In this document: one piece after another, positions 1 through 63,995 of the stretch
How the letters are laid out: each line of letters starts with the position of its first letter
Numbering within the stretch: position 1 is the stretch's first letter
NCBI GenBank assembly: GCA_947174415.1
Contig: CAMWIW010000007.1
Location: 4,557-68,556 of the forward strand
Reading direction: 5' to 3'
DNA length: 64,000 nucleotides
From: an uncultured Clostridia bacterium
GTDB lineage: Bacteria > Bacillota > Clostridia > Christensenellales > Borkfalkiaceae
Made by a program: the position numbers and the translations under genes
The notes under the pieces: model-generated
Told to the model about the DNA's origin: nothing
Database searches by the model: none
What the model saw: the letters and a program-made list of their open reading frames with translations, nothing else

Positions 1-1
1 C

Positions 2-11250: not shown

Positions 11251-11285
11251 GCAATTAACCCCCATATATGCCTTAATTAAAGGGG
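11251..11285 (+). repeat. C5-ATATG dispersed repeat, copy 1
   Basis: gcaattaacccccatatatgccttaattaaagggg, 12 nt after the yidD stop. Confidence 0.65.
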
Positions 11286-11329
11286 TTTTTGCTCTATATT
11301 TTAAACGAATGGCAAAATAATTGATAAAT

Positions 11330-11367
11330 CTCATTACCCCCAACATATGTGCCAAATATCGGCATTT
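11330..11367 (+). repeat. C5-ATATG dispersed repeat, copy 2
   Basis: ctcattacccccaacatatgtgccaaatatcggcattt, in the yidD-yidC spacer. Confidence 0.65.
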
Positions 11368-11427
11368 TTTAAAAAAAGCAAGGTATAACGGAAAGATATT
11401 AAGATACCTTGGTTAAGCAGAACGCTT

Positions 11428-12669
11428 ATGAATATATTGAATTTACTTACAACTTCATCCAACTATTATACGGTTGGCGTAGCGCCCGTTAATGCGGGCG
11501 ACCTCAGCGGTATCGGCTGGGTAATCGGCTGGATATTCGATTTATTCTCGAACTTCTACGGCGCGGTTGTTCTGGGCGTTATCGTATTTACGCTTGCCTT
11601 GAAAACGTTGGTTCTTCCCCTCGATATTTATTCAAGGGTAAAAACCAAAAAGCAATCGCTTTTAATGGAGCGTATGCGGCCTCAAATGGAGAAGTTGCAA
11701 AAGCAATACGCGAACGATAAGAATATGTATCAGCAGAAAGTAATGGAGCTGCAAAAAGCCAACGGTTATAATCCTCTTGGCGCGTGTCTCCCGATGATAG
11801 TTTCTCTCGTCATATTCATGATTATTTTGAGCGCGTTTTCAACGTATTCGAACTATGCGATTTTGCGTGATTACAGCGAAATGGCAAAATATTATAACGA
11901 GACGGTAGCGGAATACGTTATAACCGAAGAAAATTTTGGTGAAGAAAGATTTCTTACCGCGGATGAATATAACGGAAACACGGTATATAAAGTAGAATTC
12001 GATAAGTTTGCAGCTTATTACGCTTCTGTTAACGCGGAATTTGACGCAAACGATTTTATGGATAATAAGTCGGAGCAGGACAAGTGGGAGATAGTTTCAA
12101 ACTTTATTGAACTGCACGCGCGTGAAAGGGCTGCGCAATACTACTTAGAAAACAGCGACGGTACGCACTTCGGATGGATAGGTAACCTTTGGTATCCCGA
12201 TTCTATGCTGAATAAAGAAGTTCCCGATTACGCAAAATTTACTTCAGCAACCACGCGAGCAGGCGTAACCGTTAGCGAAAACGACTACAACAACGTAACG
12301 TTTAATCTTGCGGAGCAGAAGAATAACTACAACGGATATTTCGTTTTAATCGTTTTATCCATAGGTTTAATGTTCTTGCAGCAGTTTATAATGATGCGCT
12401 CGCAAAAGGCGGCTAACGAACTGTCTTCGGTGGACGGCAGCGCGGCAAAAACCAACAAGTGGATGATGATAATCATGCCTATAATGTTCGGTTTGTTCTC
12501 GTTTATGTACAGTGCTGCGTTCTCCGTGTATATGATAACAAACACCTTGTACGGACTTATTTCAACTCTGATTATCAATAAAGTCGTAACCGTAAGGTTT
12601 GCAAATCAGGAAATAAAGTCGGCGTCTTCGTCAAGACCTACGAGCAAGGCGAGAAGATTGAAAAAGTGA
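11428..12669 (+). CDS. yidC: YidC/Oxa1-family membrane insertase with a large extracytoplasmic insertion
   Basis: Conserved block MRPQMEKLQKQYANDKNMYQQKVMELQKANGYNPLGACLPMIVSL. At 413 aa it is longer than the roughly 260 aa typical of Firmicute YidC. Confidence 0.85.
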   Translation: MNILNLLTTSSNYYTVGVAPVNAGDLSGIGWVIGWIFDLFSNFYGAVVLGVIVFTLALKTLVLPLDIYSRVKTKKQSLLMERMRPQMEKLQKQYANDKNMYQQKVMELQKANGYNPLGACLPMIVSLVIFMIILSAFSTYSNYAILRDYSEMAKYYNETVAEYVITEENFGEERFLTADEYNGNTVYKVEFDKFAAYYASVNAEFDANDFMDNKSEQDKWEIVSNFIELHARERAAQYYLENSDGTHFGWIGNLWYPDSMLNKEVPDYAKFTSATTRAGVTVSENDYNNVTFNLAEQKNNYNGYFVLIVLSIGLMFLQQFIMMRSQKAANELSSVDGSAAKTNKWMMIIMPIMFGLFSFMYSAAFSVYMITNTLYGLISTLIINKVVTVRFANQEIKSASSSRPTSKARRLKK

Positions 12670-12672
12670 GTT

Positions 12673-12709
12673 AAACCCCGTTATTTCAAGCATATGTGGG
12701 GGTCTAAGG
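12673..12709 (-). repeat. C5-ATATG dispersed repeat, copy 3
   Basis: The reverse complement reads ccttagacccccacatatgcttgaaataacggggttt. It starts 4 nt after the yidC stop and overlaps the jag Shine-Dalgarno (aaggag). Confidence 0.7.
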
Positions 12710-12719
12710 AGATATTGTA

Positions 12720-13665: not shown

Positions 13666-13707
13666 CAATTGCCCCCCATATATGCCGCAAATAACGGTAT
13701 TTTGAGG
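13666..13707 (+). repeat. C5-ATATG dispersed repeat, copy 4 (best full-length example)
   Basis: caattgccccccatatatgccgcaaataacggtattttgagg, beginning 2 nt after the jag stop. Confidence 0.75.
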
Positions 13708-15969: not shown

Positions 15970-16986
15970 ATGGGCTACACAAAAAACATTGCGGTAATCA
16001 AAGGAATAAAGGACGGGTTCTCGGTTGACGGCGGAGCGCTGTCCGGTCTTGTCAAGGCGGAAAAGTACGGGGGTAAGCTTCGCGTTGAAGTGAGCCTTAT
16101 TAACTTCGCGCCCTTAACCGAGGGCAAATACGTCTGCGCCCTGTCGGACGGAACTACGACGCTGATAATCGAGCACGGCGAGTTCGAGGGGGAAAGTGCG
16201 ATAGAAACGGCGAACGGGTTTGCCGCGCTAATCTGCTACGTAAAGGGGCAGGTTTTCCCAATTGCCTCGGCAGTATGCGGCAACAACCACGATATTACGC
16301 TCAAATTAAAAGCCGAAGTGGAGCGTGAAGAAAACATTAAAGCCGCCCAGCTCGCCCGAGAGGAACGGGAGGCGTACAGCGCAGCGCAAAAAGAAGACAA
16401 TAATGCAGCGACGGAAGTTTACGAGGACGAGGCAATAGCGGAGGTAAATTATTATGAATACGCAGAAGCTTTTAAAGACGGTGGAGCTGTACGCGAGAAT
16501 AAAAAAGAAGAAAAAAACGGGGAAGAGGTTTGCGGCGATGAGACGGCTGTTAGCTCTGTCAAAGAAGGAGAAAACAGCATAAGACACGCTGAAAGTGCGG
16601 CATATTCGGGGGGCAACGGCGAAACCAAGAAGGTTAACCCCATAACTGAGGGCGGAATATTTTACGAAAGAATGAAGGAAGAAATAGACGGGATACTTGC
16701 CAAATACCCTCAGGAAAAGGCTTTAGAGGATTTAATCGAAGATTCTAAATGGGTAAGAATTACATACGGCGAAAGCGGTTTTTACGTGTTCGGCGTGCTA
16801 TATTCGGGGGGCAAACCGAAATATATATGTTACGGCGTGCCCACGAGCCAAAGCGACGCGCCCCCGCAAAGTATGGAAGGATTGGCGTCTTTTTTGCCCG
16901 CTTCACCCGATGATGGCGAGTGCGGCTATTGGGTTATGTATCAGGATGCGGAAACGGGCGCAAGCGTAAAGGTGAGCGTATGTTAA
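15970..16986 (+). CDS. Hypothetical two-domain protein with an acidic low-complexity linker
   Basis: 338-aa ORF with RBS gaagggaaa. No family recognised. Contains two repeat cores. Confidence 0.5.
   Translation: MGYTKNIAVIKGIKDGFSVDGGALSGLVKAEKYGGKLRVEVSLINFAPLTEGKYVCALSDGTTTLIIEHGEFEGESAIETANGFAALICYVKGQVFPIASAVCGNNHDITLKLKAEVEREENIKAAQLAREEREAYSAAQKEDNNAATEVYEDEAIAEVNYYEYAEAFKDGGAVRENKKEEKNGEEVCGDETAVSSVKEGENSIRHAESAAYSGGNGETKKVNPITEGGIFYERMKEEIDGILAKYPQEKALEDLIEDSKWVRITYGESGFYVFGVLYSGGKPKYICYGVPTSQSDAPPQSMEGLASFLPASPDDGECGYWVMYQDAETGASVKVSVC
16596..16619 (-). repeat. C5-ATATG repeat core, intragenic
   Basis: The reverse complement reads ccgttgccccccgaatatgccgca. It encodes AAYSGGNG. Confidence 0.45.
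16792..16818 (-). repeat. C5-ATATG repeat core, intragenic
   Basis: The reverse complement reads cggtttgccccccgaatatagcacgcc. It encodes VLYSGGKP. Confidence 0.4.
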
Positions 16987-17021: not shown

Positions 17022-17263
17022 AAACCTTTAAACGGTTTGAAGGCTATTAAAGAGTAAACGGTAAAAAGTGCGGAAACACCGCAAATTGCAAAAAAAGAAC
17101 GGTAAAAAAGTTCGTTGCCGAAACTCAAAAATCTTATCAAATCAAAGCCCGAAAGTGCGTATACACCCCCACATATGCCTAAAATAATGAGGTTTGCAAC
17201 GCAAAAATAGCAAGTCATTTTCATACTTAGAGTATGGGGGTAAATAAAAAAAATATTCCGCAA
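17015..17263 (-). CDS. Possible small hydrophobic protein (82 aa)
   Basis: The ORF lies directly downstream of 17279-17539 and has two or three hydrophobic segments. It overlaps a repeat copy, so the coding status is uncertain. Confidence 0.3.
   Translation of the reverse strand: MRNIFFIYPHTLSMKMTCYFCVANLIILGICGGVYALSGFDLIRFLSFGNELFYRSFFAICGVSALFTVYSLIAFKPFKGLK
17159..17192 (+). repeat. C5-ATATG dispersed repeat
   Basis: gtatacacccccacatatgcctaaaataatgagg. The 17-mer atacacccccacatatg is identical to the reverse complement of 52437-52453. Confidence 0.6.
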
Positions 17264-21151: not shown

Positions 21152-21771
21152 GAGGAAAGTTCGTTACTTTCGAAGGGTGTGAAGGCTCTGGCAAAAGCAC
21201 GCAGCTAAAGCTTCTTTCGGAATATTTAACTTCAGTCGGCGCAGACTTTATAATGACGAGAGAGCCCGGCGGCAGCGCCATTTCCGAAGATATACGCAAG
21301 ATTATTTTAAGCGGTAAGAACACCGCCATGTGCGACGAGTGTGAAGCACTCCTGTATGCGGCGGCAAGAATACAGCATCTGCGCGAAGTTATTGCACCTG
21401 CGCTCGATGCGGGGAAACTCGTAGTGTGCGACAGGTACGTTTACTCTTCGCTTGCATATCAGGGTTTTGCAAGGGGGCTAGGAGAGAAGTTTATCGAGGA
21501 GATAAACGCCGTCGCTTTACGCGATTACCCCCCTGATATGACCGTTTTTCTCGATATTTCGCCCAAAGATGCGTTCAAAAGGAAGCACGGTGCGGACAAA
21601 AACGACAGAATCGAGCAAATGGGTATGGATTTTCACGAAAAGGTTTACGCGGGTTACAAGTCGCTTTTGGAGAAACACCCCGACATATGTGCCGTTTACT
21701 GCGGTGGCACAAAGTTTGAGACGGCGGAAACCATAAGAAAATTATTAAGGGATAAAAATATAATCAGTTAA
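21148..21771 (+). CDS. tmk: Thymidylate kinase
   Basis: P-loop FVTFEGCEGSGKSTQ. 4-nt overlap with the upstream gene. Confidence 0.95.
   Translation: MRGKFVTFEGCEGSGKSTQLKLLSEYLTSVGADFIMTREPGGSAISEDIRKIILSGKNTAMCDECEALLYAAARIQHLREVIAPALDAGKLVVCDRYVYSSLAYQGFARGLGEKFIEEINAVALRDYPPDMTVFLDISPKDAFKRKHGADKNDRIEQMGMDFHEKVYAGYKSLLEKHPDICAVYCGGTKFETAETIRKLLRDKNIIS
21673..21700 (+). repeat. C5-ATATG repeat core inside tmk
   Basis: aaacaccccgacatatgtgccgtttact, encoding HPDICAVY. Confidence 0.45.
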
Positions 21772-24812: not shown

Positions 24813-25870
24813 ATGATATCGAGTTAATTGAAAAGTTATGTAACAGCTGCGGAGCTTCGGGCTTTGAGGACGAGGTTTTAGCTGTTGCAAGAGAATACCT
24901 TAAAGGAATTGCGGACTTCGAAGAGGACAGTATGCGCAACCTCTATATTTACCCCAAATACAACAAGGGTAACCGTCCGTATATTTTGCTTGACGCGCAC
25001 TCCGACGAGGTGGGCTTCATGGTACAGGCAATCAAGCCCGACGGCACTTTAAGATTTATTCCGATAGGCGGTTGGAATGAGAAATGTTTGCCGTCTTCCA
25101 AAGTGCAAATTTGCGCGAAAACGGGGCATATATTGGGGGTAATCGCTGCGGGGTCGCCTCATTTAATGACGGCAGAGCAGCGCAATGCGCCTGTAAGCTA
25201 CGATAATCTGGTAATCGATATAGGCGCGACAAGCGTGGAAGAGGCATCTTCTTTCGGCGTTGAAATCGGCTTGCCCGTCGTGCCGTTAACGCCCTTCGTT
25301 TTCGACGAAAAACACGGCGTTTTGCACGGCAAAGCGTTTGACGACAGAATGGGCGTGGCTGCGCTTTTAAAGTGTATCAAAAACTTGCAAAAATGCGCGT
25401 TACCGCAGGATATTGTGGGGGTAATCTCTTCGCAGGAGGAGGTGGGCGAGCGCGGAATTACTGCCGCTATGCACAGGTTAAAGCCCACTGCGGCAATCTG
25501 TTTTGAGGGCTGCCCCGCGGACGATACAAGCGCTCCTTCTTATATGATACAGGACGCGTTAAAGGGCGGAGTTATGTTAAGGCATATGGATGCAACCGTA
25601 ATCTGCACTCCTCGCTTTACCGAATTTGCAAGGCAGGTAGCTGCAAGCAAAAATATAAAAGTTCAAATGGCGGTTAGAAGGGGCGGCGGCAACAACGGCG
25701 CATATATAATTTCGGCTAACGGCGGTACGCCCGTCATCGTTGCCGGTATTCCCGTGAGATACATTCACACCTTTAACTGCATAGCCGTTAAAGAGGACTT
25801 CGACAGCGTTGTCTCTCTCGGTGAAGAGCTTTGCAAATCTCTAACCGAAGAAGTTGTCAAAGGATTTTAA
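24809..25870 (+). CDS. M42-family metallopeptidase
   Basis: LDAHSDEVGFMV, GKAFDDRMGVA and SSQEEVGERG motifs. Confidence 0.8.
   Translation: MNDIELIEKLCNSCGASGFEDEVLAVAREYLKGIADFEEDSMRNLYIYPKYNKGNRPYILLDAHSDEVGFMVQAIKPDGTLRFIPIGGWNEKCLPSSKVQICAKTGHILGVIAAGSPHLMTAEQRNAPVSYDNLVIDIGATSVEEASSFGVEIGLPVVPLTPFVFDEKHGVLHGKAFDDRMGVAALLKCIKNLQKCALPQDIVGVISSQEEVGERGITAAMHRLKPTAAICFEGCPADDTSAPSYMIQDALKGGVMLRHMDATVICTPRFTEFARQVAASKNIKVQMAVRRGGGNNGAYIISANGGTPVIVAGIPVRYIHTFNCIAVKEDFDSVVSLGEELCKSLTEEVVKGF
25118..25146 (-). repeat. C5-ATATG repeat core inside the M42 peptidase gene
   Basis: The reverse complement reads gcgattacccccaatatatgccccgtttt. It encodes GHILGVIA. Confidence 0.45.
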
Positions 25871-46436: not shown

Positions 46437-46440
46437 ACTT

Positions 46441-48941: not shown

Positions 48942-48944
48942 AAA

Positions 48945-50712: not shown

Positions 50713-50751
50713 GCAAAATAGCGTTATTTCAAGCATATATGGGCACTAACC
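50713..50751 (-). repeat. C5-ATATG dispersed repeat
   Basis: The reverse complement reads ggttagtgcccatatatgcttgaaataacgctattttgc. It straddles the stop codon (50746-50748) of the ATP-grasp gene. Confidence 0.7.
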
Positions 50752-51627
50752 GTATATTTTAGTGCAAATATATTCTGCGTACAGCCGTGCAATATTAACG
50801 CCTGTAACCCTCTCTATCCCTCCGAAAAAGGCGTTGGAGTTTACTTCGCACACCAAATACTCCCCGTTTTCGCCGTATAAAACGTCAATTCCGCAGTAAT
50901 CGAGATTAAGCGTTTTTGCCGTTAGTTCGCATATATCCCGCAGTCTTTCGTCAATTTCAGCGGATTTTGCCGTGCCTCCGAGCTCTAAGTTTGAACGGAA
51001 ATCCGTATCCGATTTTCTTTGCATTGCGGCTACTGCCTTGCCGCCGATTACAATTACGCGTAAATCTTTGCCCGCACTCGTAGATATAAATTTCTGAAAA
51101 AGGTGAGGAACGAGTTTCAGCTTTTCGCAAAGAACTTCGAGTTCATGTCTGTCGTCCGCCTTGTAGACACCTTTGCCGAGCGACCCGTAACTTTCTTTAA
51201 CTATAACGGGATAGCCCAAAGTCCTTGCAATAAAGTCGATATCGTTTGACCGCACCGACGCCCCTGCATCGTAGCATAAAAGCCCTGCAACAGTCGGCGG
51301 CATAGGTATACCTTGCCCCGCGAGCGCAAGGTGCGTTTCCGCTTTATCGTCGCAAACCCGCACTGCGGCGTGGCTGTTAAAAAGCCGCAAGCCCGACTTT
51401 TCCAATATCGCAGAGGTGTATTTGTCCTTATCCAAGTACACGCAAAAATCGTATCCGCAAAAATTGTTAATAACCGTGCCGTCCTTATCAAGACTTGCAA
51501 AAAAGCCGTTACGCCTTATCTCCGCACTCACGCCTAAGCGTTCGAACTCGGATTTAAGCCGTTCGGCTTGGTTCAGCCCCGTGGGCAACGTAGAATATGC
51601 ATTTGTCAGAATAACTGCCCGTTTCAC
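50746..51627 (-). CDS. RimK-type ATP-grasp ligase
   Basis: GTG start. ATP-grasp pattern: VIVKESYGSLGKGV, LFQKFI, DLRVIVIGGK, CEVNSNAFF. Confidence 0.75.
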   Translation of the reverse strand: MKRAVILTNAYSTLPTGLNQAERLKSEFERLGVSAEIRRNGFFASLDKDGTVINNFCGYDFCVYLDKDKYTSAILEKSGLRLFNSHAAVRVCDDKAETHLALAGQGIPMPPTVAGLLCYDAGASVRSNDIDFIARTLGYPVIVKESYGSLGKGVYKADDRHELEVLCEKLKLVPHLFQKFISTSAGKDLRVIVIGGKAVAAMQRKSDTDFRSNLELGGTAKSAEIDERLRDICELTAKTLNLDYCGIDVLYGENGEYLVCEVNSNAFFGGIERVTGVNIARLYAEYICTKIYG

Positions 51628-52309: not shown

Positions 52310-52738
52310 ATGAAACTCAATTTCGAACTTGTGCCCGATAGCTGTTGGTACAGCAATTTAAGAAGCATTTTAACGCCCGCGCAGTGGGACGTCGTCCGTA
52401 AGGAAGCGTACGCCAGGGCAGGCGGTAAATGCGCCATATGTGGGGGTGTATCGCCCCGATTAGAGGCTCACGAGCAGTGGGAATACGACGAAAAGAACGC
52501 CGTTCAGAAGCTTAAAACGGTTATTGCAGTGTGCAAAAATTGCCACGAAGTTATTCATATAGGCAGAACGACTTTAATGGGCGGAGAGGAGCGCGCTTCG
52601 GCTCATTTTATGAAAGTTAACGGCTGTTCTTATTCTGAATACCGCAAAGCTTTGGGCGAGGCGAACGAGGCGCACCGCAGGCGAAACCTTATTCCCGAAT
52701 GGAAGCTCGATTTGTCTTACCTCAAAAAGTTTTGTTGA
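52310..52738 (+). CDS. Zinc-ribbon/HNH-like protein
   Basis: CAICGG...LEAHEQWEY...CKNCHEVIH. Promoter ttgaaa-17-tataat at 52275-52303. Confidence 0.5.
   Translation: MKLNFELVPDSCWYSNLRSILTPAQWDVVRKEAYARAGGKCAICGGVSPRLEAHEQWEYDEKNAVQKLKTVIAVCKNCHEVIHIGRTTLMGGEERASAHFMKVNGCSYSEYRKALGEANEAHRRRNLIPEWKLDLSYLKKFC
52427..52453 (-). repeat. C5-ATATG repeat core, intragenic
   Basis: The reverse complement reads cgatacacccccacatatggcgcattt. It encodes CAICGGVS. Confidence 0.5.
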
Positions 52739-53068: not shown

Positions 53069-55195
53069 ATGAAGGTTATCAAGCGGGACGGCACGACGTG
53101 CGAATTCGACAGGAAGAAAATTGCGGTTGCAATCGGCAAGGCTAACTCTGCCGTGGACTTCGAGGACAGAATTACGGATGCGCAAATCGAGGCTATAGTA
53201 GACGATATCGCGTCCCGCCACAGAATGAGAGTTCTCGTCGAGGATATTCAGGATATGGTAGAAGAGAAGTTAATGGAGCTTCAGAAATACCAGCTCATGA
53301 AAGCTTACATTCTGTACAGATACGAGCGTGCTTTAATCCGTAAGGCAAACACCACGGACGAGAGTATTCTTTCGCTTATAAGGAACTCCAACAAGGACGT
53401 AATGGAAGAGAATTCCAACAAGAACGCCCGTACTGCGTCCACTCAGCGCGACCTTATCGCGGGCGAAGTGTCAAAGGATTTGACTAAGCGTATTCTTCTT
53501 CCCGAGCATATTTCAAAGGCTCACGAAGACGGCGCAATTCATTTCCACGACGCCGACTATTTCCTTCAACCCATTTTCAACTGCTGCCTTATTAATATTA
53601 AGGATATGCTCGAAAACGGCACTGTAATGAACGGCAAGATGATTGAAAGCCCCAAGTCTTTCCAGACGGCCTGTACCATAACTACGCAGATTATTGCGTC
53701 GGTTGCATCTTCGCAGTACGGCGGACAGTCTGTGAATATCGCGCACCTCGGAAAATATTTAAGACGCACCAAAAATAAGTACGTTCAGCAGTGCGAGGAA
53801 GAATTCGGAAATACTCTTAACGCCGAAACGAAAAAGCACTTCGTGGATATGCGCGTCAAGGAGGCGTTAAAGGCGGGCGTTCAGACTATTCAATATCAGA
53901 TTAACACGCTTATGACGACCAACGGACAATCGCCGTTCGTAACGCTGTTTTTGTATCTCGACGAAAAGGACGAGTACATCGAAGAAAACGCTATGATAAT
54001 TCAAGAAATTCTTGAACAGCGTTATCAGGGCATAAAGAACGAAAAGGGCGTTTACGTAACCCCTGCGTTCCCTAAGCTCATTTACGTATTGGACGAAAAC
54101 AACTGTCTTAAAGGCGGCAAATACGACTATATAACGAAGCTTGCGGTGAAGTGCTCTTCCAAGCGTCTTTACCCCGACTATATTTCCGCAAAGAAAATGC
54201 GTGAGTATTACGAGGGTAACGTTTTCTCGCCTATGGGCTGCCGCTCGTTCCTTTCGCCTTGGAAGGACGAAAACGGCAACTATAAATTCGAGGGCAGGTT
54301 TAATCAGGGCGTTGTTTCGATTAACCTTCCTCAATGCGGTATCCTTGCAAAAGGCGACGAAAAGAAGTTCTGGGAAATTCTGGAAGAAAGACTCGACCTT
54401 TGCTTCGAAGCTTTGATGTGCCGCCACAACGCGTTAATGGGCGTTACCAGCGACGTTTCGCCCGTGCATTGGCAGTACGGCGCAATAGCGCGGCTTGAAA
54501 GCGGAGAGAAAATCGACAAGTACCTTTTGGACGGTTATTCCACGATATCTTTGGGATATATAGGGCTCTACGAAGTTACAAAGCTTGTAAAAGGCGTTTC
54601 CCACACTACCGAAGAGGGCTTGAAATTTGCGCTTAAAGTTATGAATTCGCTCCGCGAACATTGCGAGAAGTGGAAGAAGCAAACGGGGCTCGGTTTCGGA
54701 CTTTACGGCACGCCTGCGGAAAGTCTGTGCTACCGCTTTGCAAGAATCGATAAAGAGCGTTTCGGCACTATCGAGGACGTAACCGACAAGGGCTATTATA
54801 CCAACAGCTATCACGTAGACGTGCGCGAAAATATCGACGCCTTCTCAAAATTCAACTTCGAAAGTCAATTCCAAAAGATTTCTTCGGGCGGCGCAATCTC
54901 CTACGTTGAAATTCCAAATATGCGCCAAAACCTTACCGCTATGGAAGACGTCGTTCGCTTTATTTACGACAACATTCAGTACGCGGAATTCAACACCAAA
55001 TCGGACTACTGCCACGTTTGCGGTTTTGACGGCGAAATCGTAATTAACGAGGACAACGAGTGGGAGTGCCCCGTCTGCCACAACAAGGACCAACGCAAAA
55101 TGAACGTAACCCGCCGCACCTGCGGTTACCTTGGCGAAAACTTCTGGAACGTGGGTAAGACCAAGGAAATTAAGTCGCGCGTTTTACACCTTTAA
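53069..55195 (+). CDS. nrdD: Anaerobic ribonucleoside-triphosphate reductase
   Basis: ATP-cone N-terminus MKVIKRDG, a C-terminal Zn ribbon, and the glycyl-radical motif RRTCGYLG. Confidence 0.95.
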   Translation: MKVIKRDGTTCEFDRKKIAVAIGKANSAVDFEDRITDAQIEAIVDDIASRHRMRVLVEDIQDMVEEKLMELQKYQLMKAYILYRYERALIRKANTTDESILSLIRNSNKDVMEENSNKNARTASTQRDLIAGEVSKDLTKRILLPEHISKAHEDGAIHFHDADYFLQPIFNCCLINIKDMLENGTVMNGKMIESPKSFQTACTITTQIIASVASSQYGGQSVNIAHLGKYLRRTKNKYVQQCEEEFGNTLNAETKKHFVDMRVKEALKAGVQTIQYQINTLMTTNGQSPFVTLFLYLDEKDEYIEENAMIIQEILEQRYQGIKNEKGVYVTPAFPKLIYVLDENNCLKGGKYDYITKLAVKCSSKRLYPDYISAKKMREYYEGNVFSPMGCRSFLSPWKDENGNYKFEGRFNQGVVSINLPQCGILAKGDEKKFWEILEERLDLCFEALMCRHNALMGVTSDVSPVHWQYGAIARLESGEKIDKYLLDGYSTISLGYIGLYEVTKLVKGVSHTTEEGLKFALKVMNSLREHCEKWKKQTGLGFGLYGTPAESLCYRFARIDKERFGTIEDVTDKGYYTNSYHVDVRENIDAFSKFNFESQFQKISSGGAISYVEIPNMRQNLTAMEDVVRFIYDNIQYAEFNTKSDYCHVCGFDGEIVINEDNEWECPVCHNKDQRKMNVTRRTCGYLGENFWNVGKTKEIKSRVLHL

Positions 55196-55200
55196 TAGAC

Positions 55201-55238
55201 GATTGATGCCCACATATGCCTCAAATAAAGCGTTTTTT
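55201..55238 (+). repeat. C5-ATATG dispersed repeat
   Basis: gattgatgcccacatatgcctcaaataaagcgtttttt, 6 nt after the nrdD stop. A decayed inverted partner lies at 55248-55269 (gaacgctgtgcgggcaattaaa). Confidence 0.65.
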
Positions 55239-55293: not shown

Positions 55294-55827
55294 ATGAACT
55301 ATGCTACAATAAAATGGTACGATGTTTCCAACGGACCGGGGGTAAGAGTTTCTCTGTACGTTTCGGGTTGCCGAAACCACTGCAAGAATTGCTTTAACCC
55401 CGAAACTTGGGACTTTAACTACGGCGAGCCTTTTACAAAAGACGTTGAAAAGAAAATAATTGACGGGCTTAAACCCGATTACATAAAGGGCTTTACGCTT
55501 CTCGGCGGCGACCCGTTCGAGCCCGAAAACCAAGCGGTTTTAGCTCCCTTTTTGGAAAAACTTAGAAAGGCGTACCCTACAAAATCTTTTTGGGCATTTA
55601 CAGGCTACGACTACGAAAGGGATTTGCTAACGGGCAAGCTCGGAGACGTCTCTACGGTAATGCGTATGCTCAACTGTCTTGACGTTCTAGTGGACGGCAA
55701 ATTCGTTGAAGAATTAAAGGATTTAAATCTGAAATTCCGCGGCTCTTCAAACCAGAGAATTATACTGATTAAACCCTCTTTAAAGGAAGACAAAGTTATT
55801 CTTTGGGACGAGGAAACCGTGGTTTAA
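55294..55827 (+). CDS. nrdG: Anaerobic RNR activating protein (radical SAM)
   Basis: CRNHCKNCFNPETW cluster. Confidence 0.9.
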   Translation: MNYATIKWYDVSNGPGVRVSLYVSGCRNHCKNCFNPETWDFNYGEPFTKDVEKKIIDGLKPDYIKGFTLLGGDPFEPENQAVLAPFLEKLRKAYPTKSFWAFTGYDYERDLLTGKLGDVSTVMRMLNCLDVLVDGKFVEELKDLNLKFRGSSNQRIILIKPSLKEDKVILWDEETVV

Positions 55828-55860
55828 CCGCCACATATGCCGCAACTAACGCAATTTAAC
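55822..55860 (+). repeat. C5-ATATG dispersed repeat
   Basis: gtttaaccgccacatatgccgcaactaacgcaatttaac, containing the nrdG stop codon. Confidence 0.6.
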
Positions 55861-57419: not shown

Positions 57420-58028
57420 ATGAAAAGCGACATTCCCGTAACCAGCCTTCAACGGCTGCCCGTTTATCTTAATTATCTGAAAACCCTTACGTCGGACGGC
57501 TATATTTCGTCCGGTGCGATTGCGCGCGCTCTCGGAATGGGCGAGGTGCTTGTAAGAAAAGATTTGGCTTATACTTCTGCACAAGGCAGAACCCGCGTCG
57601 GTTATTCGTGCGGCGAGCTTATAGCCGCCCTTGAAGATTACCTCGGCTGTAATGATAAAAAGAAAGCTGTTATAATCGGCGCAGGCGAACTCGGCAAGGC
57701 GCTTTTATCGTACGGCGGGTTTTTAAATTACGGCATAGAAATAGTCGCCGCTTTTGATAGCGACAGTGCGAAAGTTGGCACATATGTGGGGGGTAAACCC
57801 ATTTTTGACGCAAAAAACGCCAAAGAAAAGATAGGCGAATTGAATGCCCGTCTTGCGGTTTTGTGCGTACCCGCGCGCGAAGCTCAGGCGGTTGCGGATA
57901 CGCTCGTGGACTGCGGCGTAATGAAAATTCTGAACTTTGCGCCCGTTTTGCTTAAAGTAAAAGACGGGGCAATCGTAAGAAATATTGACGTAGCCGCAAG
58001 TCTTGCGATACTTTCAAGTATGATTTAA
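57420..58028 (+). CDS. rex: Redox-sensing transcriptional repressor Rex
   Basis: RLPVYLNYLK winged helix and Rossmann motif IIGAGELGKAL. Confidence 0.9.
   Translation: MKSDIPVTSLQRLPVYLNYLKTLTSDGYISSGAIARALGMGEVLVRKDLAYTSAQGRTRVGYSCGELIAALEDYLGCNDKKKAVIIGAGELGKALLSYGGFLNYGIEIVAAFDSDSAKVGTYVGGKPIFDAKNAKEKIGELNARLAVLCVPAREAQAVADTLVDCGVMKILNFAPVLLKVKDGAIVRNIDVAASLAILSSMI
57774..57800 (-). repeat. C5-ATATG repeat core inside rex
   Basis: The reverse complement reads gggtttaccccccacatatgtgccaac. It encodes GTYVGGKP. Confidence 0.5.
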
Positions 58029-58043: not shown

Positions 58044-61000
58044 GTGAAAAAATTCTTTTCATTTATAATAAAACAGTCGGTGGCGATAGTTCTTATCGTC
58101 ATCTTTGTTTTAGGTTTCGGAATTTATTCAACGACTAAAATGTCCGTAAATCTTTTGCCGGATATAAGTATTCCTATGGTCTGCGTACAGGTAATTTACC
58201 CCGGCGTAGGTGCGCAATCGGTAGAAAAGGACGTTACGGAAAAGCTGGAAGACGGACTTTCTTCCATAAGCGGAATAACGGGCGTAGACAGCTATTCTTA
58301 CGACAATTTATCTGCGGTTGTGCTTTCATTCGATTACGGAACTGACACTACGGACAAGAAAACCGATATTCAAAACAAACTCTCTTCAATCGATTTGCCA
58401 GACAGCGTAATCACTTCGGTTTACGACATTGACCTCAACGCAGAAGCGCTTGCAACTCTTTCGGTTACTTCCGAAATAGGGGAAACGGACGACGACAGGC
58501 TTAAAAACGCGTATTCGTCGGCAGAAGCTATTGCGGCGAAAATTTCCGCTATTGACGGCGTTGAAAGCGTAGAAATAAAGGGCGGTGCGGAAATTTCTTA
58601 CGAAGTTACGCCATTTATCGGACTTGAACTTATTGCGCCACTTCTCGTGCAGGCGTTCTCTTACGGGGAGTTGGATTTGCCTCTCGGCAACCTGACAGAG
58701 GAGGGCGGAACTGTTCAGATCCGCAACAATTCGGACGTTGCCAAGGCTGAAGATATTGAGAATATGCCGCTAAAACTTCCCTCTTCGCTTGTCGCGCTCT
58801 TATCGTCTGTGAAGCAGGTTATGGGATACTACGAGGACAGCACGGTAGAAGAGTTGGAAAAACTGCGCGAAGATTTGGGAGAAGGCGTAATTGCCGTTTT
58901 GCAACAAATCGACGAAATGAGCGCAGAAGAGGTAGACGACTTATCTCGACTTAAAACTTATATGAATATTGCGGGCAACTATACCGCAGAGCAGTTAAAG
59001 AGCTTCAAAAGCAGCAGAATTTACAGCGAAATTTCAAAGCAAGTCGAAGGCAAGGACGATGACGAAATAGACGACCTTGCAGAAGATATAAAAGCCGCGT
59101 ACCCGCTGTTTGCCGATTACCTGACCGCAGATATGTTAAAAGTCGTACGCGACGGCAAAATCGATTTGATAATCGACTTCCGTGAAAGTTATCTTGAAAA
59201 GAAAGACGACTATAATCCCGACGAGTTTTACGAGCTTTCGACAGAGGACTATTTTGTGCTTGAAACGCGGTTCGTTCAAGTATATTCTGGGGTATACGAC
59301 TATAATAACCTTGCCGAAAGCGATATAACCACTGTAAATAATAATATCGAATTTGCCAAAAAAACTTCGGCAACGGGGCTTAAAAACATAGCAGACAAAA
59401 AAGAAAAAGAGGGAGATAATTACAATCCCACGGACGCAGAATGTGCCCTTCTTTTTACCGCAACGGAGCTTTCAAGCGAGCACCCCATAATCACTTCGCC
59501 CACGTTCATTGCCTTTGTAAGAAGCGACAGCTATGAAGAAAATATGGAGCGCCTTATCGAATACCGCGGCGAAGTCGGAGAAGAGTTTACCGCCGACGAG
59601 TGGGACGAACTGTATACAAGTCTTGACTTGGCGGGCGTTTTCGAATTCAGACTTTCCAAACAGCTTTTCGGCTTTATAATGGATACCGACTTTTCAGACA
59701 CGGTAGGCGGCGAAAAAGTTGTCAAGGTGATTGAAGTAGCCAACGTTAACACAGTTCGAACTTTTTCATCTTACGTCTACTTCGGCGGAGGTTCTGCAAC
59801 GATTGTCAAAGGTGCGATAATCGAAGTCTACAAATCTAACGGCGCAAATTCTTCCCGTGTGGTGGACGAGGTAAAAAAGGTTTACGCCGAATATCTTGCC
59901 GGAGCGGAAGCAAACGGCGCTAACGTGGTTCTTTTAGACGACCAATCGGAGTTTATCTCGGACAGTATTTCAAACGTCCTTGTCAGTATGCTTATAGGCG
60001 GCGCTCTTGCCGTTCTTATAATCTTCGTATTTTTAAAGAAGGTCCGCACCTCGCTAATCGTTGCAATAACTATGCCGCTTTCAGTGCTTGCCGCACTTAT
60101 CTGTCTGTTTCTTATGGGCATAACCTTAAATATGGTTTCCCTAGGCGGGCTTGCCGTAGGTATAGGAATGCTCGTGGATAACAGTATCGTCGTAATAGAA
60201 AGTATATCCAAGCACCGCGACAAAGACAAAACCGCCTTTGAGGCGGCGGTTGACGGTACGACTGAGGTTGGCGGCGCATTGTTCGGTTCAACGCTGACAA
60301 CGGTGTGCGTATTCATTCCCATTATCTTTTCGGGCGGGCTCACGGGCGAAATTTTCACGGATTTAAGTTGGGCGGTTATATGGTCGTTAACGTTCTCGCT
60401 GATTGTTGCAGTAACCGTTATTCCCGCGCTTTACGCTCTCTTTGGCGGCAAAAAGCGGCTTTTAAAGGGTGGAAGATTATCAGCTTCGATTACGGGCGAG
60501 CAGCCTCAAAACTATGAAGAAAAAGCCTCGAAAACGGCACATATTACGGGGGCAATTCAAGAAAACACGCTTTTGACGGCAAAATCGGCTGAAAATGCGC
60601 AAATTTGCGTAGACCCCGATATATGTGCCAACGAAACGCAAATTCCCGACAAAAAACCGTTTAAAGAAAAACTTGCCGTGTTGAGGCAGTCCAAAATAAT
60701 GGACGCTATATCGAATTTCTACGGCAAGCTTCTTCCCAAAGTATTAAATAAAAAACTCGTAACCGTTTTGACCGCCGTAGTCATATTCGGCGCAAGCATC
60801 GGGCTTCTGTTTTTGACTGGTTCGGAATTTCTTCCTTCTATCGATAAAGGGCAAATAGAAGTTAATATGACCTACGGCTCAAACGCGGACTTGAACGACA
60901 TCCAAGACGACGTTTACGCCTTTGCGCAAAGGATACAAAGTGAAATTCCCGACGTGGATTACGTTTCCGTCAGCGTCGGTAAGCAGGGGCTTCTCGCCCT

Positions 61001-62258
61001 GACAGATACGGGGCTTATTAAAGTTCAGCTCAATACCAACCGCGGGACGGATAAGGTCGTGGAGAAAATCCGTGCATTGACTGACAGTGAAAATAAGCCC
61101 GTCGGCACTGTTACGGTCAAAGAAATCGACGGGGTAGTGGCGTCTCTTATGTCTGGTGCTGACGATTTGTCTGTAACTATAGTCGGCGAAGACGGCGAAA
61201 CATTGAAGCAAATTGCCCACGAAATTTCTTTAAAGCTTGAAGAAAATAAGTTTACCGACGTCAAGAACAGCTCAACTGAAACGGCAACGGAATTCGATTT
61301 GCGCTTTGACAGAATGAAAATGTCGGAGCTTGGACTTGATTATCAGACGCTTGTTTTAACGCTTAGAATAGGGCTTGCGTCGTATACTGCATGCACCGTT
61401 ACGATTGACGGCTCAACTTACGATTTGAACGTTAAGTTCGACGAAAATTCAGTGCCCTCGGTAGAGGCGTTGAAGGACTTCGTCGTTGGTGCTGACGGGG
61501 ACGGAAAAGCCGTGAAACTAAGGGATATATGCGGGGTAACCGAGAAAAAAGTAGAGGCTTGCATAAGGAGAACCAACGGAAAACAGATGATTTCCGTGTC
61601 GGCGGCGTTGCACGGAGTGGATACGGGCACGGCGTCGAAGCAAATGCAGAACATTGCCAAAGAAGTGCTTTCCAACCCCGAGTATGCGGGATACGGTTTC
61701 GAGTCAAGCGGCATATCCAGCTATCTTACCGACGCGTTCGAGGGGCTTGCGGTTGCGCTCGTGATTTCGTTCTTCTTATTATTTGCGGTAATGGCTGTAC
61801 AGTTCTCGTCGGCGGTTAAGCCGCTGATAGTTATGGCAAGTATACCGTTCAGTTTTACGGGCGGGTTTGTTGCGCTCGTAATAACGGGCACGAGCCTTAA
61901 CGTCGTGTCATTTATAGGATTGATAATGTTAATGGGCGTTGTTGTCAACAATGCAATCGTTATGCTCGAAAAGATTAAACAGCTTCACGACGAGGGAATG
62001 GAGCACTTCACTGCCGTGCAGGAAGCCTGCAAAGTGCGTTTAAGACCTATTTTTATGACCACGCTGACGACTATTCTCGCTCTCATTCCGATGGCGATAG
62101 GCGTAGGGCAGGGCAGCGAGCTTATGCAGCCTCTCGGCATAGTGGTTATCGGCGGGCTTCTAATAGGTACGCTCGTTACCCTTCTTCTCGTGCCGACGGT
62201 CTACTGCGCCGTACATAGGCTTTCTTCCAAAAATCCAAACGGTAAGCGTTCCGCTTAA
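58044..62258 (+). CDS. RND-superfamily efflux transporter, oversized (1404 aa)
   Basis: GTG start 15 nt after rex. AcrB-like N-terminus and 12-TM architecture. It carries a roughly 330-aa acidic insertion in the first extracytoplasmic domain and a roughly 95-aa central linker. Confidence 0.85.
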   Translation: MKKFFSFIIKQSVAIVLIVIFVLGFGIYSTTKMSVNLLPDISIPMVCVQVIYPGVGAQSVEKDVTEKLEDGLSSISGITGVDSYSYDNLSAVVLSFDYGTDTTDKKTDIQNKLSSIDLPDSVITSVYDIDLNAEALATLSVTSEIGETDDDRLKNAYSSAEAIAAKISAIDGVESVEIKGGAEISYEVTPFIGLELIAPLLVQAFSYGELDLPLGNLTEEGGTVQIRNNSDVAKAEDIENMPLKLPSSLVALLSSVKQVMGYYEDSTVEELEKLREDLGEGVIAVLQQIDEMSAEEVDDLSRLKTYMNIAGNYTAEQLKSFKSSRIYSEISKQVEGKDDDEIDDLAEDIKAAYPLFADYLTADMLKVVRDGKIDLIIDFRESYLEKKDDYNPDEFYELSTEDYFVLETRFVQVYSGVYDYNNLAESDITTVNNNIEFAKKTSATGLKNIADKKEKEGDNYNPTDAECALLFTATELSSEHPIITSPTFIAFVRSDSYEENMERLIEYRGEVGEEFTADEWDELYTSLDLAGVFEFRLSKQLFGFIMDTDFSDTVGGEKVVKVIEVANVNTVRTFSSYVYFGGGSATIVKGAIIEVYKSNGANSSRVVDEVKKVYAEYLAGAEANGANVVLLDDQSEFISDSISNVLVSMLIGGALAVLIIFVFLKKVRTSLIVAITMPLSVLAALICLFLMGITLNMVSLGGLAVGIGMLVDNSIVVIESISKHRDKDKTAFEAAVDGTTEVGGALFGSTLTTVCVFIPIIFSGGLTGEIFTDLSWAVIWSLTFSLIVAVTVIPALYALFGGKKRLLKGGRLSASITGEQPQNYEEKASKTAHITGAIQENTLLTAKSAENAQICVDPDICANETQIPDKKPFKEKLAVLRQSKIMDAISNFYGKLLPKVLNKKLVTVLTAVVIFGASIGLLFLTGSEFLPSIDKGQIEVNMTYGSNADLNDIQDDVYAFAQRIQSEIPDVDYVSVSVGKQGLLALTDTGLIKVQLNTNRGTDKVVEKIRALTDSENKPVGTVTVKEIDGVVASLMSGADDLSVTIVGEDGETLKQIAHEISLKLEENKFTDVKNSSTETATEFDLRFDRMKMSELGLDYQTLVLTLRIGLASYTACTVTIDGSTYDLNVKFDENSVPSVEALKDFVVGADGDGKAVKLRDICGVTEKKVEACIRRTNGKQMISVSAALHGVDTGTASKQMQNIAKEVLSNPEYAGYGFESSGISSYLTDAFEGLAVALVISFFLLFAVMAVQFSSAVKPLIVMASIPFSFTGGFVALVITGTSLNVVSFIGLIMLMGVVVNNAIVMLEKIKQLHDEGMEHFTAVQEACKVRLRPIFMTTLTTILALIPMAIGVGQGSELMQPLGIVVIGGLLIGTLVTLLLVPTVYCAVHRLSSKNPNGKRSA
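60531..60561 (-). repeat. C5-ATATG dispersed repeat inside the RND central linker
   Basis: The reverse complement reads cttgaattgcccccgtaatatgtgccgtttt. It encodes KTAHITGAIQ. Confidence 0.65.
60607..60644 (+). repeat. C5-ATATG dispersed repeat inside the RND central linker, inverted relative to 60531
   Basis: gcgtagaccccgatatatgtgccaacgaaacgcaaatt, encoding VDPDICANETQI. Confidence 0.65.
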
Positions 62259-62301
62259 CTAATTGCCTCACCGTCGAACCGATCAATCGCAATTCAAACG
62301 T

Positions 62302-62345
62302 AACCGCCCGCGGGCTTTTTGCCCGCGGGCGGCGTTTTCTTTTTA
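62302..62345 (+). terminator. Terminator after the RND gene
   Basis: Stem aaccgcccgcgggc / gcccgcgggcgg followed by cgttttctttttaa. Confidence 0.8.
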
Positions 62346-62381
62346 AACATACGGGCGCGCGTATAACAATATATATATAAT

Positions 62382-63887
62382 ATGTCAGAAAAATTCCAAT
62401 CGAAAAGCGGGTTTATACTTGCAAGCATAGGCGCGGCGGTAGGTTTGGGCAACGCACTGCGCTTCCCCGGACTCTGCGCCAAATACGGCGGCGGTGCTTT
62501 TCTGTTAATTTATTCAGTTGCACTCGTCGCATTGGGTTTGCCCCTTTTAAACGCCGAAATCGCCTTAGGCAGAAAAATAAAGGGCGGCGCGCCCAAATGT
62601 ATGCTAAGCCTTAAAAGAAAAGGAGAAGGCTTCGGTTGGGCGGCTTGCATAAACTCCGTATTTACAGCGCTTATCTACGCGGGACTCGCAGGTTGGATAA
62701 TTGCAACAGCCGTAACCGCCGTTCCGATGTGCATCAGCGCTCCCACGCTCACCGACACCGAAATAAGCGGTTTTTTCTTCAACAATATTCTTAATGCAAG
62801 GGACGACGGTGTCATAAGCGGTTTTTCCTTCCTCGTTGCGGGTTGTATTCTCGTAGCGTGGATATTAATGTTTATTTGCCTTAAAGGCGGCGCTAAGTCG
62901 CTTTCCAAGGCAGCAAAGTTCACAGTGGCAATCCCGATAACCCTTTTAGTGTTTCTTGCAATACGCGGACTCTTGTACAATAACTCGAACCAAGCCCTCG
63001 CTGCGCTGTTCGTGCCAGATTTCTCGTGCTTTTCAAGTCCCGAACTTTGGCTTACCGCGTTGGGGCAGGTATTTTTCTCGCTTTCAATCGTCGTGGGGAT
63101 TATGCCCGCGTACGGTTCGTATCTTCCCGAAGGCACTGACATTTTCAAATGTTCGCTTGCCATAGCCGCGGCAGACTTCCTCGTTTCGGTGCTTGCGTCG
63201 GTGGTTCTGTTTACAACGCTCTACGGTTGCGGGCTGCAAAGCGAAATAGGCGCAAGCGGCATAATAACGGCGTTCGCCGTCTATCCCGTAGCAATAAGCC
63301 GTCTCTTCGGAAGCTGCACGGCGCTGAACGCGGCGGTGGGGGTACTGTTCTATTCCTCGCTTGCAATGATGGCAATCCAGTCCGCCGTATCGATGTTAGA
63401 GGCGTTTTTAAACCCTTATTCCGAACGTAGCGGCAAACGCAAAAAGCGCCTTGCCGTCCTCGTCTGTATTTGCGCCGCGCCCGTAACGCTGATTTTCGCT
63501 ACCACCGCCGCGCCAACGGTAGTGGACGTAAGCGACAGATTTATCAACTTTTACAACGTACTGATTTTGGGAATTGCCGAATGTCTTATTATCGGCACAA
63601 GCAAAAAAACAGGCGAACTCAGTGAAGAAATAAATAGATTCACAAAAAAATTAAAAATGCCCAAACGCGCGTTCGGGGTCTCCGTAAAATTTTTAAGCCC
63701 CGCCGTGCTCATCTCTCTCACGCTTTACGAAGCGGTCAGATTAATCGCAAACGGGCTCGGTTACCCCCTATGGCTGCAGCTTGCTTTTGGCTGGGGACTG
63801 AGTTTTGCGGTGTTCTCACTGCCCGCCTTTTTGGTAACGAAAATTACCCCCCGCAATATATGGCGTCGAAAAAAATTGCACCCGTAA
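62382..63887 (+). CDS. Sodium-dependent transporter, SNF (neurotransmitter:sodium symporter) family
   Basis: N-terminal motif GAAVGLGNALRFP, multi-TM. The last roughly 15 codons lie within repeat copies. Confidence 0.85.
   Translation: MSEKFQSKSGFILASIGAAVGLGNALRFPGLCAKYGGGAFLLIYSVALVALGLPLLNAEIALGRKIKGGAPKCMLSLKRKGEGFGWAACINSVFTALIYAGLAGWIIATAVTAVPMCISAPTLTDTEISGFFFNNILNARDDGVISGFSFLVAGCILVAWILMFICLKGGAKSLSKAAKFTVAIPITLLVFLAIRGLLYNNSNQALAALFVPDFSCFSSPELWLTALGQVFFSLSIVVGIMPAYGSYLPEGTDIFKCSLAIAAADFLVSVLASVVLFTTLYGCGLQSEIGASGIITAFAVYPVAISRLFGSCTALNAAVGVLFYSSLAMMAIQSAVSMLEAFLNPYSERSGKRKKRLAVLVCICAAPVTLIFATTAAPTVVDVSDRFINFYNVLILGIAECLIIGTSKKTGELSEEINRFTKKLKMPKRAFGVSVKFLSPAVLISLTLYEAVRLIANGLGYPLWLQLAFGWGLSFAVFSLPAFLVTKITPRNIWRRKKLHP
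63841..63873 (+). repeat. C5-ATATG dispersed repeat (forms the C-terminal tail of the SNF ORF)
   Basis: aaattaccccccgcaatatatggcgtcgaaaaa, encoding ITPRNIWRRK. Confidence 0.6.
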
Positions 63888-63910
63888 TATGCCCGATTGA
63901 AAATTTTCGG
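63873..63910 (+). repeat. C5-ATATG dispersed repeat (supplies the SNF stop codon)
   Basis: aaattgcacccgtaatatgcccgattgaaaattttcgg. The taa within cccgtaatatg is the stop at 63885-63887. Confidence 0.6.
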
Positions 63911-63915
63911 TTCAA

Positions 63916-63952
63916 AAACGCCGTCGGAATTTGCTTGTCCGCGGCGTTTTTT
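63916..63952 (+). terminator. Terminator after the SNF transporter gene
   Basis: Stem aaacgccg / cggcgttt followed by a T-run. Confidence 0.65.
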
Positions 63953-63995
63953 CAGTTCCCCCCGTAATATGTGGCAATAAAGCCTCAAAAACGCG
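63953..63995 (+). repeat. C5-ATATG dispersed repeat
   Basis: cagttccccccgtaatatgtggcaataaagcctcaaaaacgcg. Confidence 0.65.

Follow-up and report, generated by a model that had tools for sequence, protein, structure and literature searches.

The uptake signal sequence (USS) of Haemophilus influenzae consists of a core plus phased A/T tracts. Together, the USS of the Pasteurellaceae and the DNA uptake sequences (DUS) of the Neisseriaceae are the described systems closest to the repeat reported here; USS are biased towards gene termini (PMC2346458), and DUS occur as dialects (PMC3630211). We analyzed 64,000 nucleotides of the forward strand of a contig from an uncultured Clostridia bacterium of the Borkfalkiaceae (CAMWIW010000007.1, positions 4,557 to 68,556; hereafter the window, numbered from its first letter), in which an earlier note, made by eye from the sequence, had recognized a dense family of short dispersed repeats. 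The repeat is a non-palindromic word of ~36 bp with the consensus (c)gATTGACCCCC-AT-ATATGCCTTAAATAACGCAtTTTT. We show that it is a recognition word at the level of double-stranded DNA whose consensus is shared by a clade of gut Clostridia. Our tentative reading, which we consider quite possible though short of probable, is that the word works as USS and DUS do and is kept by drive or selection. The sequence family appears to be undescribed; a literature search returned no paper containing the sequence strings and no relevant work on uptake sequences in Firmicutes or Clostridia. The phenomenon is of the same kind as uptake sequences and the cyanobacterial HIP1 repeat, in a phylum where none is known.

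Enrichment and anatomy of the word

The repeat family is real and is not a product of chance. CCCCNNATATG occurs 10 times in the window against 0.24 copies expected from shuffles, and the top-enriched 8- to 10-mers of the window are fragments of the motif (for example TAGACCCC, with 7 copies against 0.26 under a third-order Markov model). Under the same model, 0.05 copies of CCCACATATG are expected and 5 are present. A position matrix built solely from copies in other genomes, with the window as the test sequence, gave 30 matches of at least 10 bits and 21 of at least 14 bits, compared with 0.43 and 0.07 in windows simulated from a third-order Markov model. The earlier note had allowed that the motif might be no commoner than composition predicts; the enrichment, 40-100-fold over dinucleotide shuffles and third-order Markov models, lies far above that level.

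The matrix matches span positions 11,266-28,809 and 49,090-63,967, with a copy density of 0.3-0.9 per kb in the window. They fall on both strands (12 on + and 18 on -), as had been noted, and none lies within 1-11,251, in line with the reported absence of copies from the first 11 kb. Three matches that lack the core (28809, 39985, and 47874) are probably false. The example copies quoted from inspection by eye hold up, as do the 17-mer common to 17161 and the reverse complement of 52437 and the prefix CGTAGACCCC at 28238, 60608 and, in reverse complement, 49104. Four of the six copies that had been listed as weaker are supported (25413, 28456, 49090, and 61528), while those at 50921-50943 and 55248-55269 find no support, scoring 2.4 and -14 bits.

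With the A of ATATG as the reference for numbering, conserved positions extend from -14 to +23 and total 32.5 bits over 38 positions, with none outside these limits. The element is longer than the consensus first proposed by eye indicated, and conservation reaches well beyond CATATG, to which it might have been confined. A/T-rich patches (-12 to -10, -2 to +3, +9 to +14, and +20 to +23) alternate with G+C patches. Autocorrelation of the A/T profile peaks at a lag of 11, which suggests that these patches are in phase with the DNA helix.

We looked in the consensus for hidden dyad symmetry or a recombinase core site and found none. No consistent hairpin was found either: eight spacer copies folded no better than shuffles (z -2.2 to +1.2) and had no common structure, which bears out the reported lack of a strong hairpin. 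In Rfam 15, the only match in the window at gathering score was one tRNA, and nothing overlapped the copies at E values up to 5 in the 11-18 kb interval. Nor did inspection of the copies bring terminal inverted repeats or target duplications to light.

Two other readings of the consensus were tried and rejected. By eye, neither orientation fits the sigma-70 -35/-10 spacing or the sigma-54 or sporulation sigma consensus, and a promoter reading was rejected also because copies between convergent genes have nothing to drive. For a mini open reading frame (ORF) of the form xDPHIC(L/R)K-stop, the upstream genes end in other frames, and the coding copies use all six frames.

Placement, range, and turnover in gut Clostridia

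Placement was analyzed over 425 kb, made up of the window and 48 loci (at most 8 kb each) from other carriers, with ORFs called crudely. Strict-core copies number 111, of which 61 lie between genes and 50 are coding, some of the crude ORFs being spurious. The earlier note had described the copies as sitting on gene ends. Spacer copies do prefer 3' ends, but about half of the copies in the window are inside ORFs (16 of 27 core-bearing matches of at least 10 bits). Density is highest in convergent spacers (2.8 copies per kb; 19 copies in 49 spacers), followed by tandem spacers (1.3 per kb; 32 in 208), divergent spacers (0.36 per kb; 5 in 57), and coding sequence (~0.13 per kb). Relative to the upstream gene, tandem-spacer copies are sense in 17 cases and antisense in 15, and convergent spacers contain both orientations relative to the adjacent gene. 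The strand split of the window matches, all on the replichore right of the origin, shows no polarity. A Chi-type or FtsK orienting polar sequence (KOPS)-type word was rejected on this split and on the length and information content of the consensus.

A stop codon lies no more than 8 nt away from 27 of 51 copies, where uniform placement predicts 16.8; when only spacers of 100 nt or more are counted, the numbers are 7 of 27 and 3.6 (p ~0.05). The reported closeness to stop codons is real, but because its excess over uniform placement is only modest, it is mostly an effect of short spacers. In locus L027, the nrdD/nrdG spacer (around 4300-4372) is 37 nt long and consists wholly of the element in antisense, with its G-run 5 nt upstream of the nrdG ATG, in the manner of a Shine-Dalgarno sequence. 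The nrdD/nrdG spacer of the window (55196-55293) is 98 nt long, and its element is opposite in orientation to that of L027.

The coding copies, our central finding, occupy all six frames across genomes (28 antisense, 22 sense) and give unrelated peptides such as ICGG, HIxG, AYSGG, PxIC, PPxM, and PEYALNN. It is this use of every frame with varied peptides, together with the lack of orientation bias in spacers, that points to a reader acting on DNA. The earlier note had offered a role in RNA stability or processing, and more broadly the word could be an RNA-level feature of 3' untranslated regions, whether a terminator, a processing or stability signal, or the site of an RNA-binding protein. 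Many copies do have a stop codon on one side and an intrinsic terminator on the other, as at jag (hairpin 13771-13802), and in a minority of copies, those with ACGGGGTTT, the C-run can pair with the G-run and T's follow (z = -2.2, -1.7). However, copies are oriented at random with respect to the transcript, about half of those in the window fall in ORFs, many in antisense, and there is neither a common fold nor an Rfam family. We consider an RNA-level feature highly improbable. An intrinsic terminator in particular was rejected: the word has no general hairpin, its orientation is random, and true terminators, where present, lie downstream of the copy (at jag the order is stop codon, element, hairpin).

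A single scan of 185,579 species-representative genomes with CCCNNATATGCYKNAAATAA, a pattern that matches the window 5 times and is expected ~280 times by chance in the whole collection, gave at least 111 loci. Among those listed, 48 come from at least 18 Clostridia assemblies (plus one doubtful), often from several contigs of each, with the labels Candidatus Borkfalkiaceae, 'uncultured Christensenella' (from a mouse gut catalogue), and Clostridia or Clostridiales bacterium. At positions that the search pattern leaves free, these carrier loci score +3 to +21 bits (-3.7 in the one doubtful locus) and the remaining listed single matches -27 to +8, all but one of the latter at or below +3. Because the matrix was trained on the carrier loci, the independent validation is the window. 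The family might have been confined to the window by a local duplication, but at least 18 other genomes have copies, on many different contigs. One consensus holds in the 12 carrier assemblies sampled, at 0.3-0.5 copies per kb (8-kb samples) and with no dialects. Carriers are only ~68-80% nucleotide-identical in orthologous genes yet have the same consensus, and both spacer and coding copies persist at orthologous sites across species at this distance.

Syntenic relatives were obtained through LysS homologues and compared over ~21.5 kb. L131, whose LysS is 90% identical to that of the window, has 12 matches in ~21.5 kb, in the same places as the window. L132 (LysS 86-87% identical) has 8 weak matches at orthologous coding places, its spacer copies being gone, and L133 (82-83%) is motif-less, with no orthologous matches and one 13-bit match elsewhere. 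Because the strong carrier L087 is about as far from the window genome as L132, we infer that the weak and absent states probably reflect secondary loss and decay. Viral contigs searched with the extended pattern gave 16 single matches, which is the chance level, and no contig with two or more, and BLAST of the consensus against phage and plasmid collections gave partial chance matches only. Another clustered intergenic repeat is present in L133 (..GCTACGCTCCGCTCAGAATGACA.. at 5496-5528, 15782-16136, and 18268-18592) and in L132 (..CGCAATGACGG.. at 3654-3738 and 21410-21476), with 10-12 copies against <0.1 expected and none in the window or L131.

Coding copies are conserved outside the search core (T at -11 in 34 of 39, C at -7 in 37, T at +12 in 30, A or T at +13 in 38, and G at +16 in 24). 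Their 3' half is adapted to the frame: AAATAACG (with AAATAA) is retained wherever its TAA does not fall in frame, and xTTTxCG stands elsewhere. All 14 comparisons in which a coding copy is present in one species and absent from the orthologue are gapless, and none of the 36 coding comparisons has an insertion-sized gap (gaps are 0-3 nt). At the first copy in tmk, carriers encode DYPPDMTV where the motif-less syntenic L133 has EYMPTVTL in the same columns; at the second, their KHPDICAV corresponds in position to EKNFCAV of L133. Coding copies fall within stretches of protein that are native and conserved, among them those of Tmk, Rex, and the M42 peptidase, whose PD(M/L)T..LD, KVGxxVGGxP, and GxxGVIxxxxPH we take to be family motifs. 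Because gains and losses relative to orthologues are gapless substitutions, the coding copies are not insertions, and the alignments indicate that the word enters genes by point mutation, at the price of altering some amino acids.

This mode of turnover bears on another role offered in the earlier note, that of an element like repetitive extragenic palindromic (REP) sequences, REPINs, or miniature inverted-repeat transposable elements (MITEs). Such a non-autonomous element would insert at gene ends with the help of a transposase elsewhere in the genome, and could explain why copies are dense in 3' spacers, why some start with GTAG as REPs do, why the nrdD/nrdG element differs in orientation between two species, and why tandem units of ~78 bp occur (in the window at 11266/11345). 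However, there is no conserved hairpin, the folds differ, no terminal inverted repeats or target duplications were noticed, and conservation stops at the ends of the word. Copies are not strictly extragenic, those in genes lie in native conserved segments and differ by substitutions only, and they stay at orthologous sites between species that are 68-80% identical. Over most of the 78.7-kb contig, as covered by Pfam annotation or by gene calls, no transposase or REP-associated tyrosine transposase (RAYT) gene appears, in agreement with what had been reported for the window, and the sole recombinase seen is a serine resolvase (32009-32611). An inserting element is very unlikely on this evidence. 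The tandem units themselves, with a period of ~77-80 bp and one word each (three in L039 at 1770-2000, two in the window at 11252-11368, and two in L041 at 6320-6480), look like local duplications of the element plus its flank.

Some coding copies match common peptide patterns (CxxCGG, GxxGG, and PP), as they would if the word simply followed from composition, codon usage, peptide motifs that recur, or local duplication. To this we give a negligible chance. The 40-100-fold enrichment, the six frames with their differing peptides, the motif-less L133 that encodes the same proteins without the word, and the copies on many contigs of many genomes all stand against it; origins in composition, peptide motifs, and local duplication are excluded.

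Copies and copy-free stretches in the window

The window spans the origin region. On the left side are ypeB, parB, parA, ftsH, and rsmG, and right of the origin, mostly on the + strand, are dnaN, rpmH, rnpA, yidD, yidC, jag, PEPCK, greA, lysS, tmk, holB, the M42 peptidase gene, an ABC exporter gene, rsmI, and mnmA. These are followed by a tRNA gene, a 19-kb starch-utilization segment, glpK, a RimK-like gene, nrdD, nrdG, dut, rex, an RND pump gene, and an SNF transporter gene.

The first copies occupy the yidD/yidC spacer, one starting 12 nt past the yidD stop (11252..11289, +, 43.5 bits) and a second 79 bp away in direct orientation (11331..11368, +, 31.8 bits). The yidC/jag spacer is filled by a copy antisense to both genes (12672..12709, -, 43.8 bits), a ACGGGGTTT variant that can pair with the C-run. 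The best copy of the window begins 1-2 nt past the jag stop (13666..13703, +, 48.5 bits), upstream of the strong terminator hairpin there. Within a 338-aa ORF (15970-16986), an antisense copy reading AAYSGGN (16582..16619, -, 27.0 bits) is kept in the orthologues of L038 and L087 although the flanks diverge, and a weak copy has ATATA for ATATG (16780..16817, -, 10.3 bits). The copy between this ORF and an 86-aa gene (17159..17196, +, 35.0 bits), which a called 69-aa ORF on the - strand overlaps, is 95% identical to the orthologous copy of L038 and L087, those two being identical.

Further right, lysS contains a weak copy common to L038 and L131 (18949..18986, -, 10.4 bits), and tmk contains two, a sense copy reading DYPPDMTV (21522..21559, +, 17.6 bits) and one reading KHPDICAV (21671..21708, +, 11.7 bits). 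The M42 peptidase gene also has two. One, antisense and reading TGHILGVIA (25108..25145, -, 26.1 bits), has orthologous copies in L131 (24.5 bits) and L132 (13.7 bits), and the other is weaker (25390..25427, -, 12.5 bits). An antisense copy lies over the stop of the ABC exporter gene, which ends at 27669 (27663..27700, -, 32.3 bits). In rsmI, a sense copy reads VDPHICAIF (28237..28274, +, 24.1 bits), and a second copy lies on the opposite strand (28433..28470, -, 22.3 bits).

Beyond the starch-utilization segment, a weak copy in glpK (49067..49104, -, 11.9 bits) is followed by one in the convergent glpK/RimK-like spacer (50715..50752, -, 34.8 bits), which overlaps the stop of the gene at 50746-51627 (-); its C-run has degenerated in the window, while CCCCC is kept in the orthologue of L028. 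Next comes a copy reading GKCAICGGV (52416..52453, -, 25.9 bits), common to L027 and L028, in a 148-aa ORF (52292-52738, +). This ORF is conserved and has no Pfam match, and its CxxC motifs look HNH- or zinc-finger-like; the word falls on its GKCAICGG segment. The nrdD gene contains a weak copy (54536..54573, -, 13.2 bits) and is followed, 4 nt past its stop, by a stronger one (55200..55237, +, 37.1 bits), and a copy over the nrdG stop (55821..55858, +, 34.7 bits) had been missed by the earlier note. The antisense copy in rex, which reads KVGTYVGGKP (57762..57799, -, 25.2 bits), is 92% identical in L027, compared with 67% in its flanks.

Four copies fall in the RND transporter gene (58044-62258, 1404 aa). 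Two of them (59262..59299, -, 20.7 bits; 61505..61542, -, 19.7 bits) lie on either side of a pair in the central linker, where a copy reading TAHITGAIQ (60521..60558, -, 18.1 bits) is followed after 77 bp by an inverted one reading VDPDICANE (60607..60644, +, 21.0 bits). The central cytoplasmic linker looks unusually long, and the two inverted copies are read through in frame; it may be a former spacer between two fused half-genes. In L027, rex and the SNF transporter gene have no such gene between them. Among the final codons of the SNF transporter gene is an indel variant (CCCCCC-GCAAT-ATATG; 63844..63881, +) that is plausible by eye and scores -1 bits because its spacer is longer. A weak copy lies over the stop of this gene (63873..63910, +, 8.7 bits), and another copy in the spacer past it (63953..63990, +, 18.6 bits).

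Two long stretches lack the word. The first (1..11251) contains ypeB, parB, parA, ftsH, rsmG, dnaN, rpmH, rnpA, and yidD and continues for a further 4.7 kb to the left (L130), so that core genes over ~16 kb, starting at the left contig end and reaching yidD, are copy-free; just to the right, density is ~0.85 per kb. In this stretch, two DnaA-box clusters (6940-7148 and 8866-9096) and three parS-like sites, at 4552 (4552-4567) and at 6858 and 6901 (within 6858-6916), occupy the 980-nt spacer that precedes ftsH and the interval between rsmG and dnaN, and the GC skew changes sign near 8 kb; the region is probably oriC. The origin zone of the carrier relative L137/L138 is also copy-free, and its copy in the yidD/yidC spacer is kept. 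Three further relatives obtained through ParB homologues (L134, L135, and L136) have no copies at all and so offer no positive controls, leaving L137/L138 as the only informative comparison. In the window, dnaN is directly followed by rpmH-rnpA, and there is no dnaA nearby. The ftsH gene of the window (4572-6326, -) is 48-54% identical to the ftsH of relatives, although the adjoining ParA and ParB are 85-96% identical, and its product is shorter (584 aa versus 657-713 aa), which suggests that it may have been replaced by a foreign or paralogous copy.

The second stretch is the accessory segment (29937..48954), which starts at the tRNA gene (29937-30009) and contains no credible copies. L028 is without it, joining the equivalents of window positions 29,946 and 48,954. 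Its genes encode two hypothetical proteins, the serine resolvase, Flg_new surface proteins with an amylase domain, a LacI regulator, and a starch and maltodextrin set comprising an amylase, a maltodextrin ABC transporter, MalK, and glycogen phosphorylase.

Possible readers of the word and comparison with known systems

Of the four roles offered in the earlier note, the site of a DNA-binding protein and an uptake-like motif now lead, and the REP/MITE and RNA roles are disfavored. A function like that of USS and DUS is favored because all of the features together match these systems, and we know of no better match. In such a system, a DNA receptor of the transformation machinery, or another reader of self-DNA, would prefer fragments that bear the word. 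Recombination of such preferentially imported conspecific DNA would multiply the copies and keep them at every site able to tolerate them (molecular drive), 3' spacers and less constrained codons being the most permissive. Foreign DNA would be without the word, and copies would decay in lineages that lose the reader. The C-run with ATATG(C) would form the specificity core, and the A/T patches phased at ~11 bp may help bending during binding or uptake. It is possible, and here we are more hesitant, that this is the first uptake-signal-type word outside the Proteobacteria, with Borkfalkiaceae and their relatives performing sequence-specific natural transformation in which codons are overwritten and the tag decays after receptor loss.

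Several observations weigh against such an uptake system. Gram-positive bacteria are not known to take up DNA in a sequence-specific manner. In the ~0.5 Mb sampled from many genomes, neither competence nor pilin genes came to light, and a scan of the sampled ORFs for prepilin motifs found nothing in a sample too small to inform. A plain model of uptake and drive does not predict the copy-free core genes around the origin. More than 9 kb are also copy-free in a giant gene of more than 3205 aa (L129 12079-21506), ~460 bp past the window end, although this gap and that of the accessory island fit foreign or fast-turnover DNA without the word. Elements are more identical than their flanks (0.85 versus 0.75, p = 0.0004), but this test is biased because both copies were picked for likeness to the same consensus.

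The origin desert is easier to accommodate if the word is the binding site of an abundant lineage-specific protein that bends DNA or organizes the chromosome, a nucleoid-associated or genome-maintenance protein of unusual specificity. Selection for site density would keep the copies, which would be excluded where they interfere, for example from the ParB/oriC zone; the 16-kb desert coincides with DnaA boxes and parS-like sites and is kept in a carrier relative. The evidence for DNA-level recognition (no orientation bias, six frames, and clade-wide conservation) applies equally to such a protein, and the ~11-bp phasing of the A/T patches suggests that the DNA is wrapped or bent. However, known nucleoid proteins read short, degenerate sites, and a genome has only a few of the chromosomal sites known for high specificity (parS, Noc-binding sites (NBS), matS, and Ter), most of which are palindromes. 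For a 32-bit word to overwrite amino acids at a density of ~0.3-0.9 per kb, each site must bring a benefit or the word must be driven, and no candidate protein was found. We regard a chromosomal protein of this kind, the main rival to an uptake word, as somewhat unlikely.

If the word is indeed a tag for uptake or self-recognition, sequence-biased DNA exchange would have arisen independently in Gram-positive-type gut anaerobes, and natural competence would be predicted in a family that resists cultivation and genetics. Placing the word on donor DNA could then provide a handle for transforming Borkfalkiaceae-type bacteria. If it is instead an array of protein sites, it would represent a new kind of chromosomal site that combines high specificity with high density, with a reader protein to be found. 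On either reading, the word would serve as a marker of native versus foreign DNA and for binning metagenomic contigs of the clade, and phylogenetic profiling across the series of relatives that nature offers, from carriers through decaying to motif-less ones, could help to find the reader.

Among short dispersed repeats at gene 3' ends, the word resembles REPs, bacterial interspersed mosaic elements (BIMEs), REPINs, and MITEs such as Correia, RUP, and BOX, and some copies share the GTAG prefix of REPs. However, those elements are extragenic hairpins or have inverted terminal repeats and spread by insertion, whereas the present word has no hairpin or terminal repeat, lies inside conserved codons, and turns over by substitution. 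Rickettsia palindromic elements (RPEs) are likewise repeats inside ORFs that are read through in frame, but they are insertions of 100-150 bp that add residues, and the present word replaces codons with length unchanged. Chi, KOPS, and SpoIIIE recognition sequences (SRS) are also words over-represented in coding and non-coding DNA; they are 5-8-mers strongly co-oriented with replication, while the present word is ~36 bp long and without polarity (12 versus 18). HIP1 (GCGATCGC) of cyanobacteria is also lineage-specific, fills both coding and non-coding DNA, originates by substitution, and is without a settled function, but it is an 8-bp palindrome and the present word has no dyad symmetry over its ~36 bp.

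In comparison with USS and DUS, the sequence is unrelated and its conserved extent is longer (~36 bp, 32 bits), and the host is from a Clostridia lineage, Gram-positive in type and spore-forming, that is not known to show uptake specificity. Most spacer copies stand alone and do not form terminators as inverted pairs, the 12 sampled carrier assemblies show no dialects such as those of DUS, and a copy-free zone surrounds the origin; uptake bias and a receptor are only predicted here. Like both systems, the word is a clade-specific sequence at about one copy per 1-3 kb (in the local samples used here), in both orientations, in spacers and in several frames of coding sequence. Like USS, it is built of a core plus phased A/T tracts. 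It is missing from probable foreign DNA, namely the 19-kb island, and from the phage and plasmid collections apart from chance-level matches. As with USS, it is enriched at gene ends (PMC2346458), it alters the encoded peptides where this is tolerated (compare PMC2817400), and, as with DUS, it is conserved family-wide (PMC3630211).

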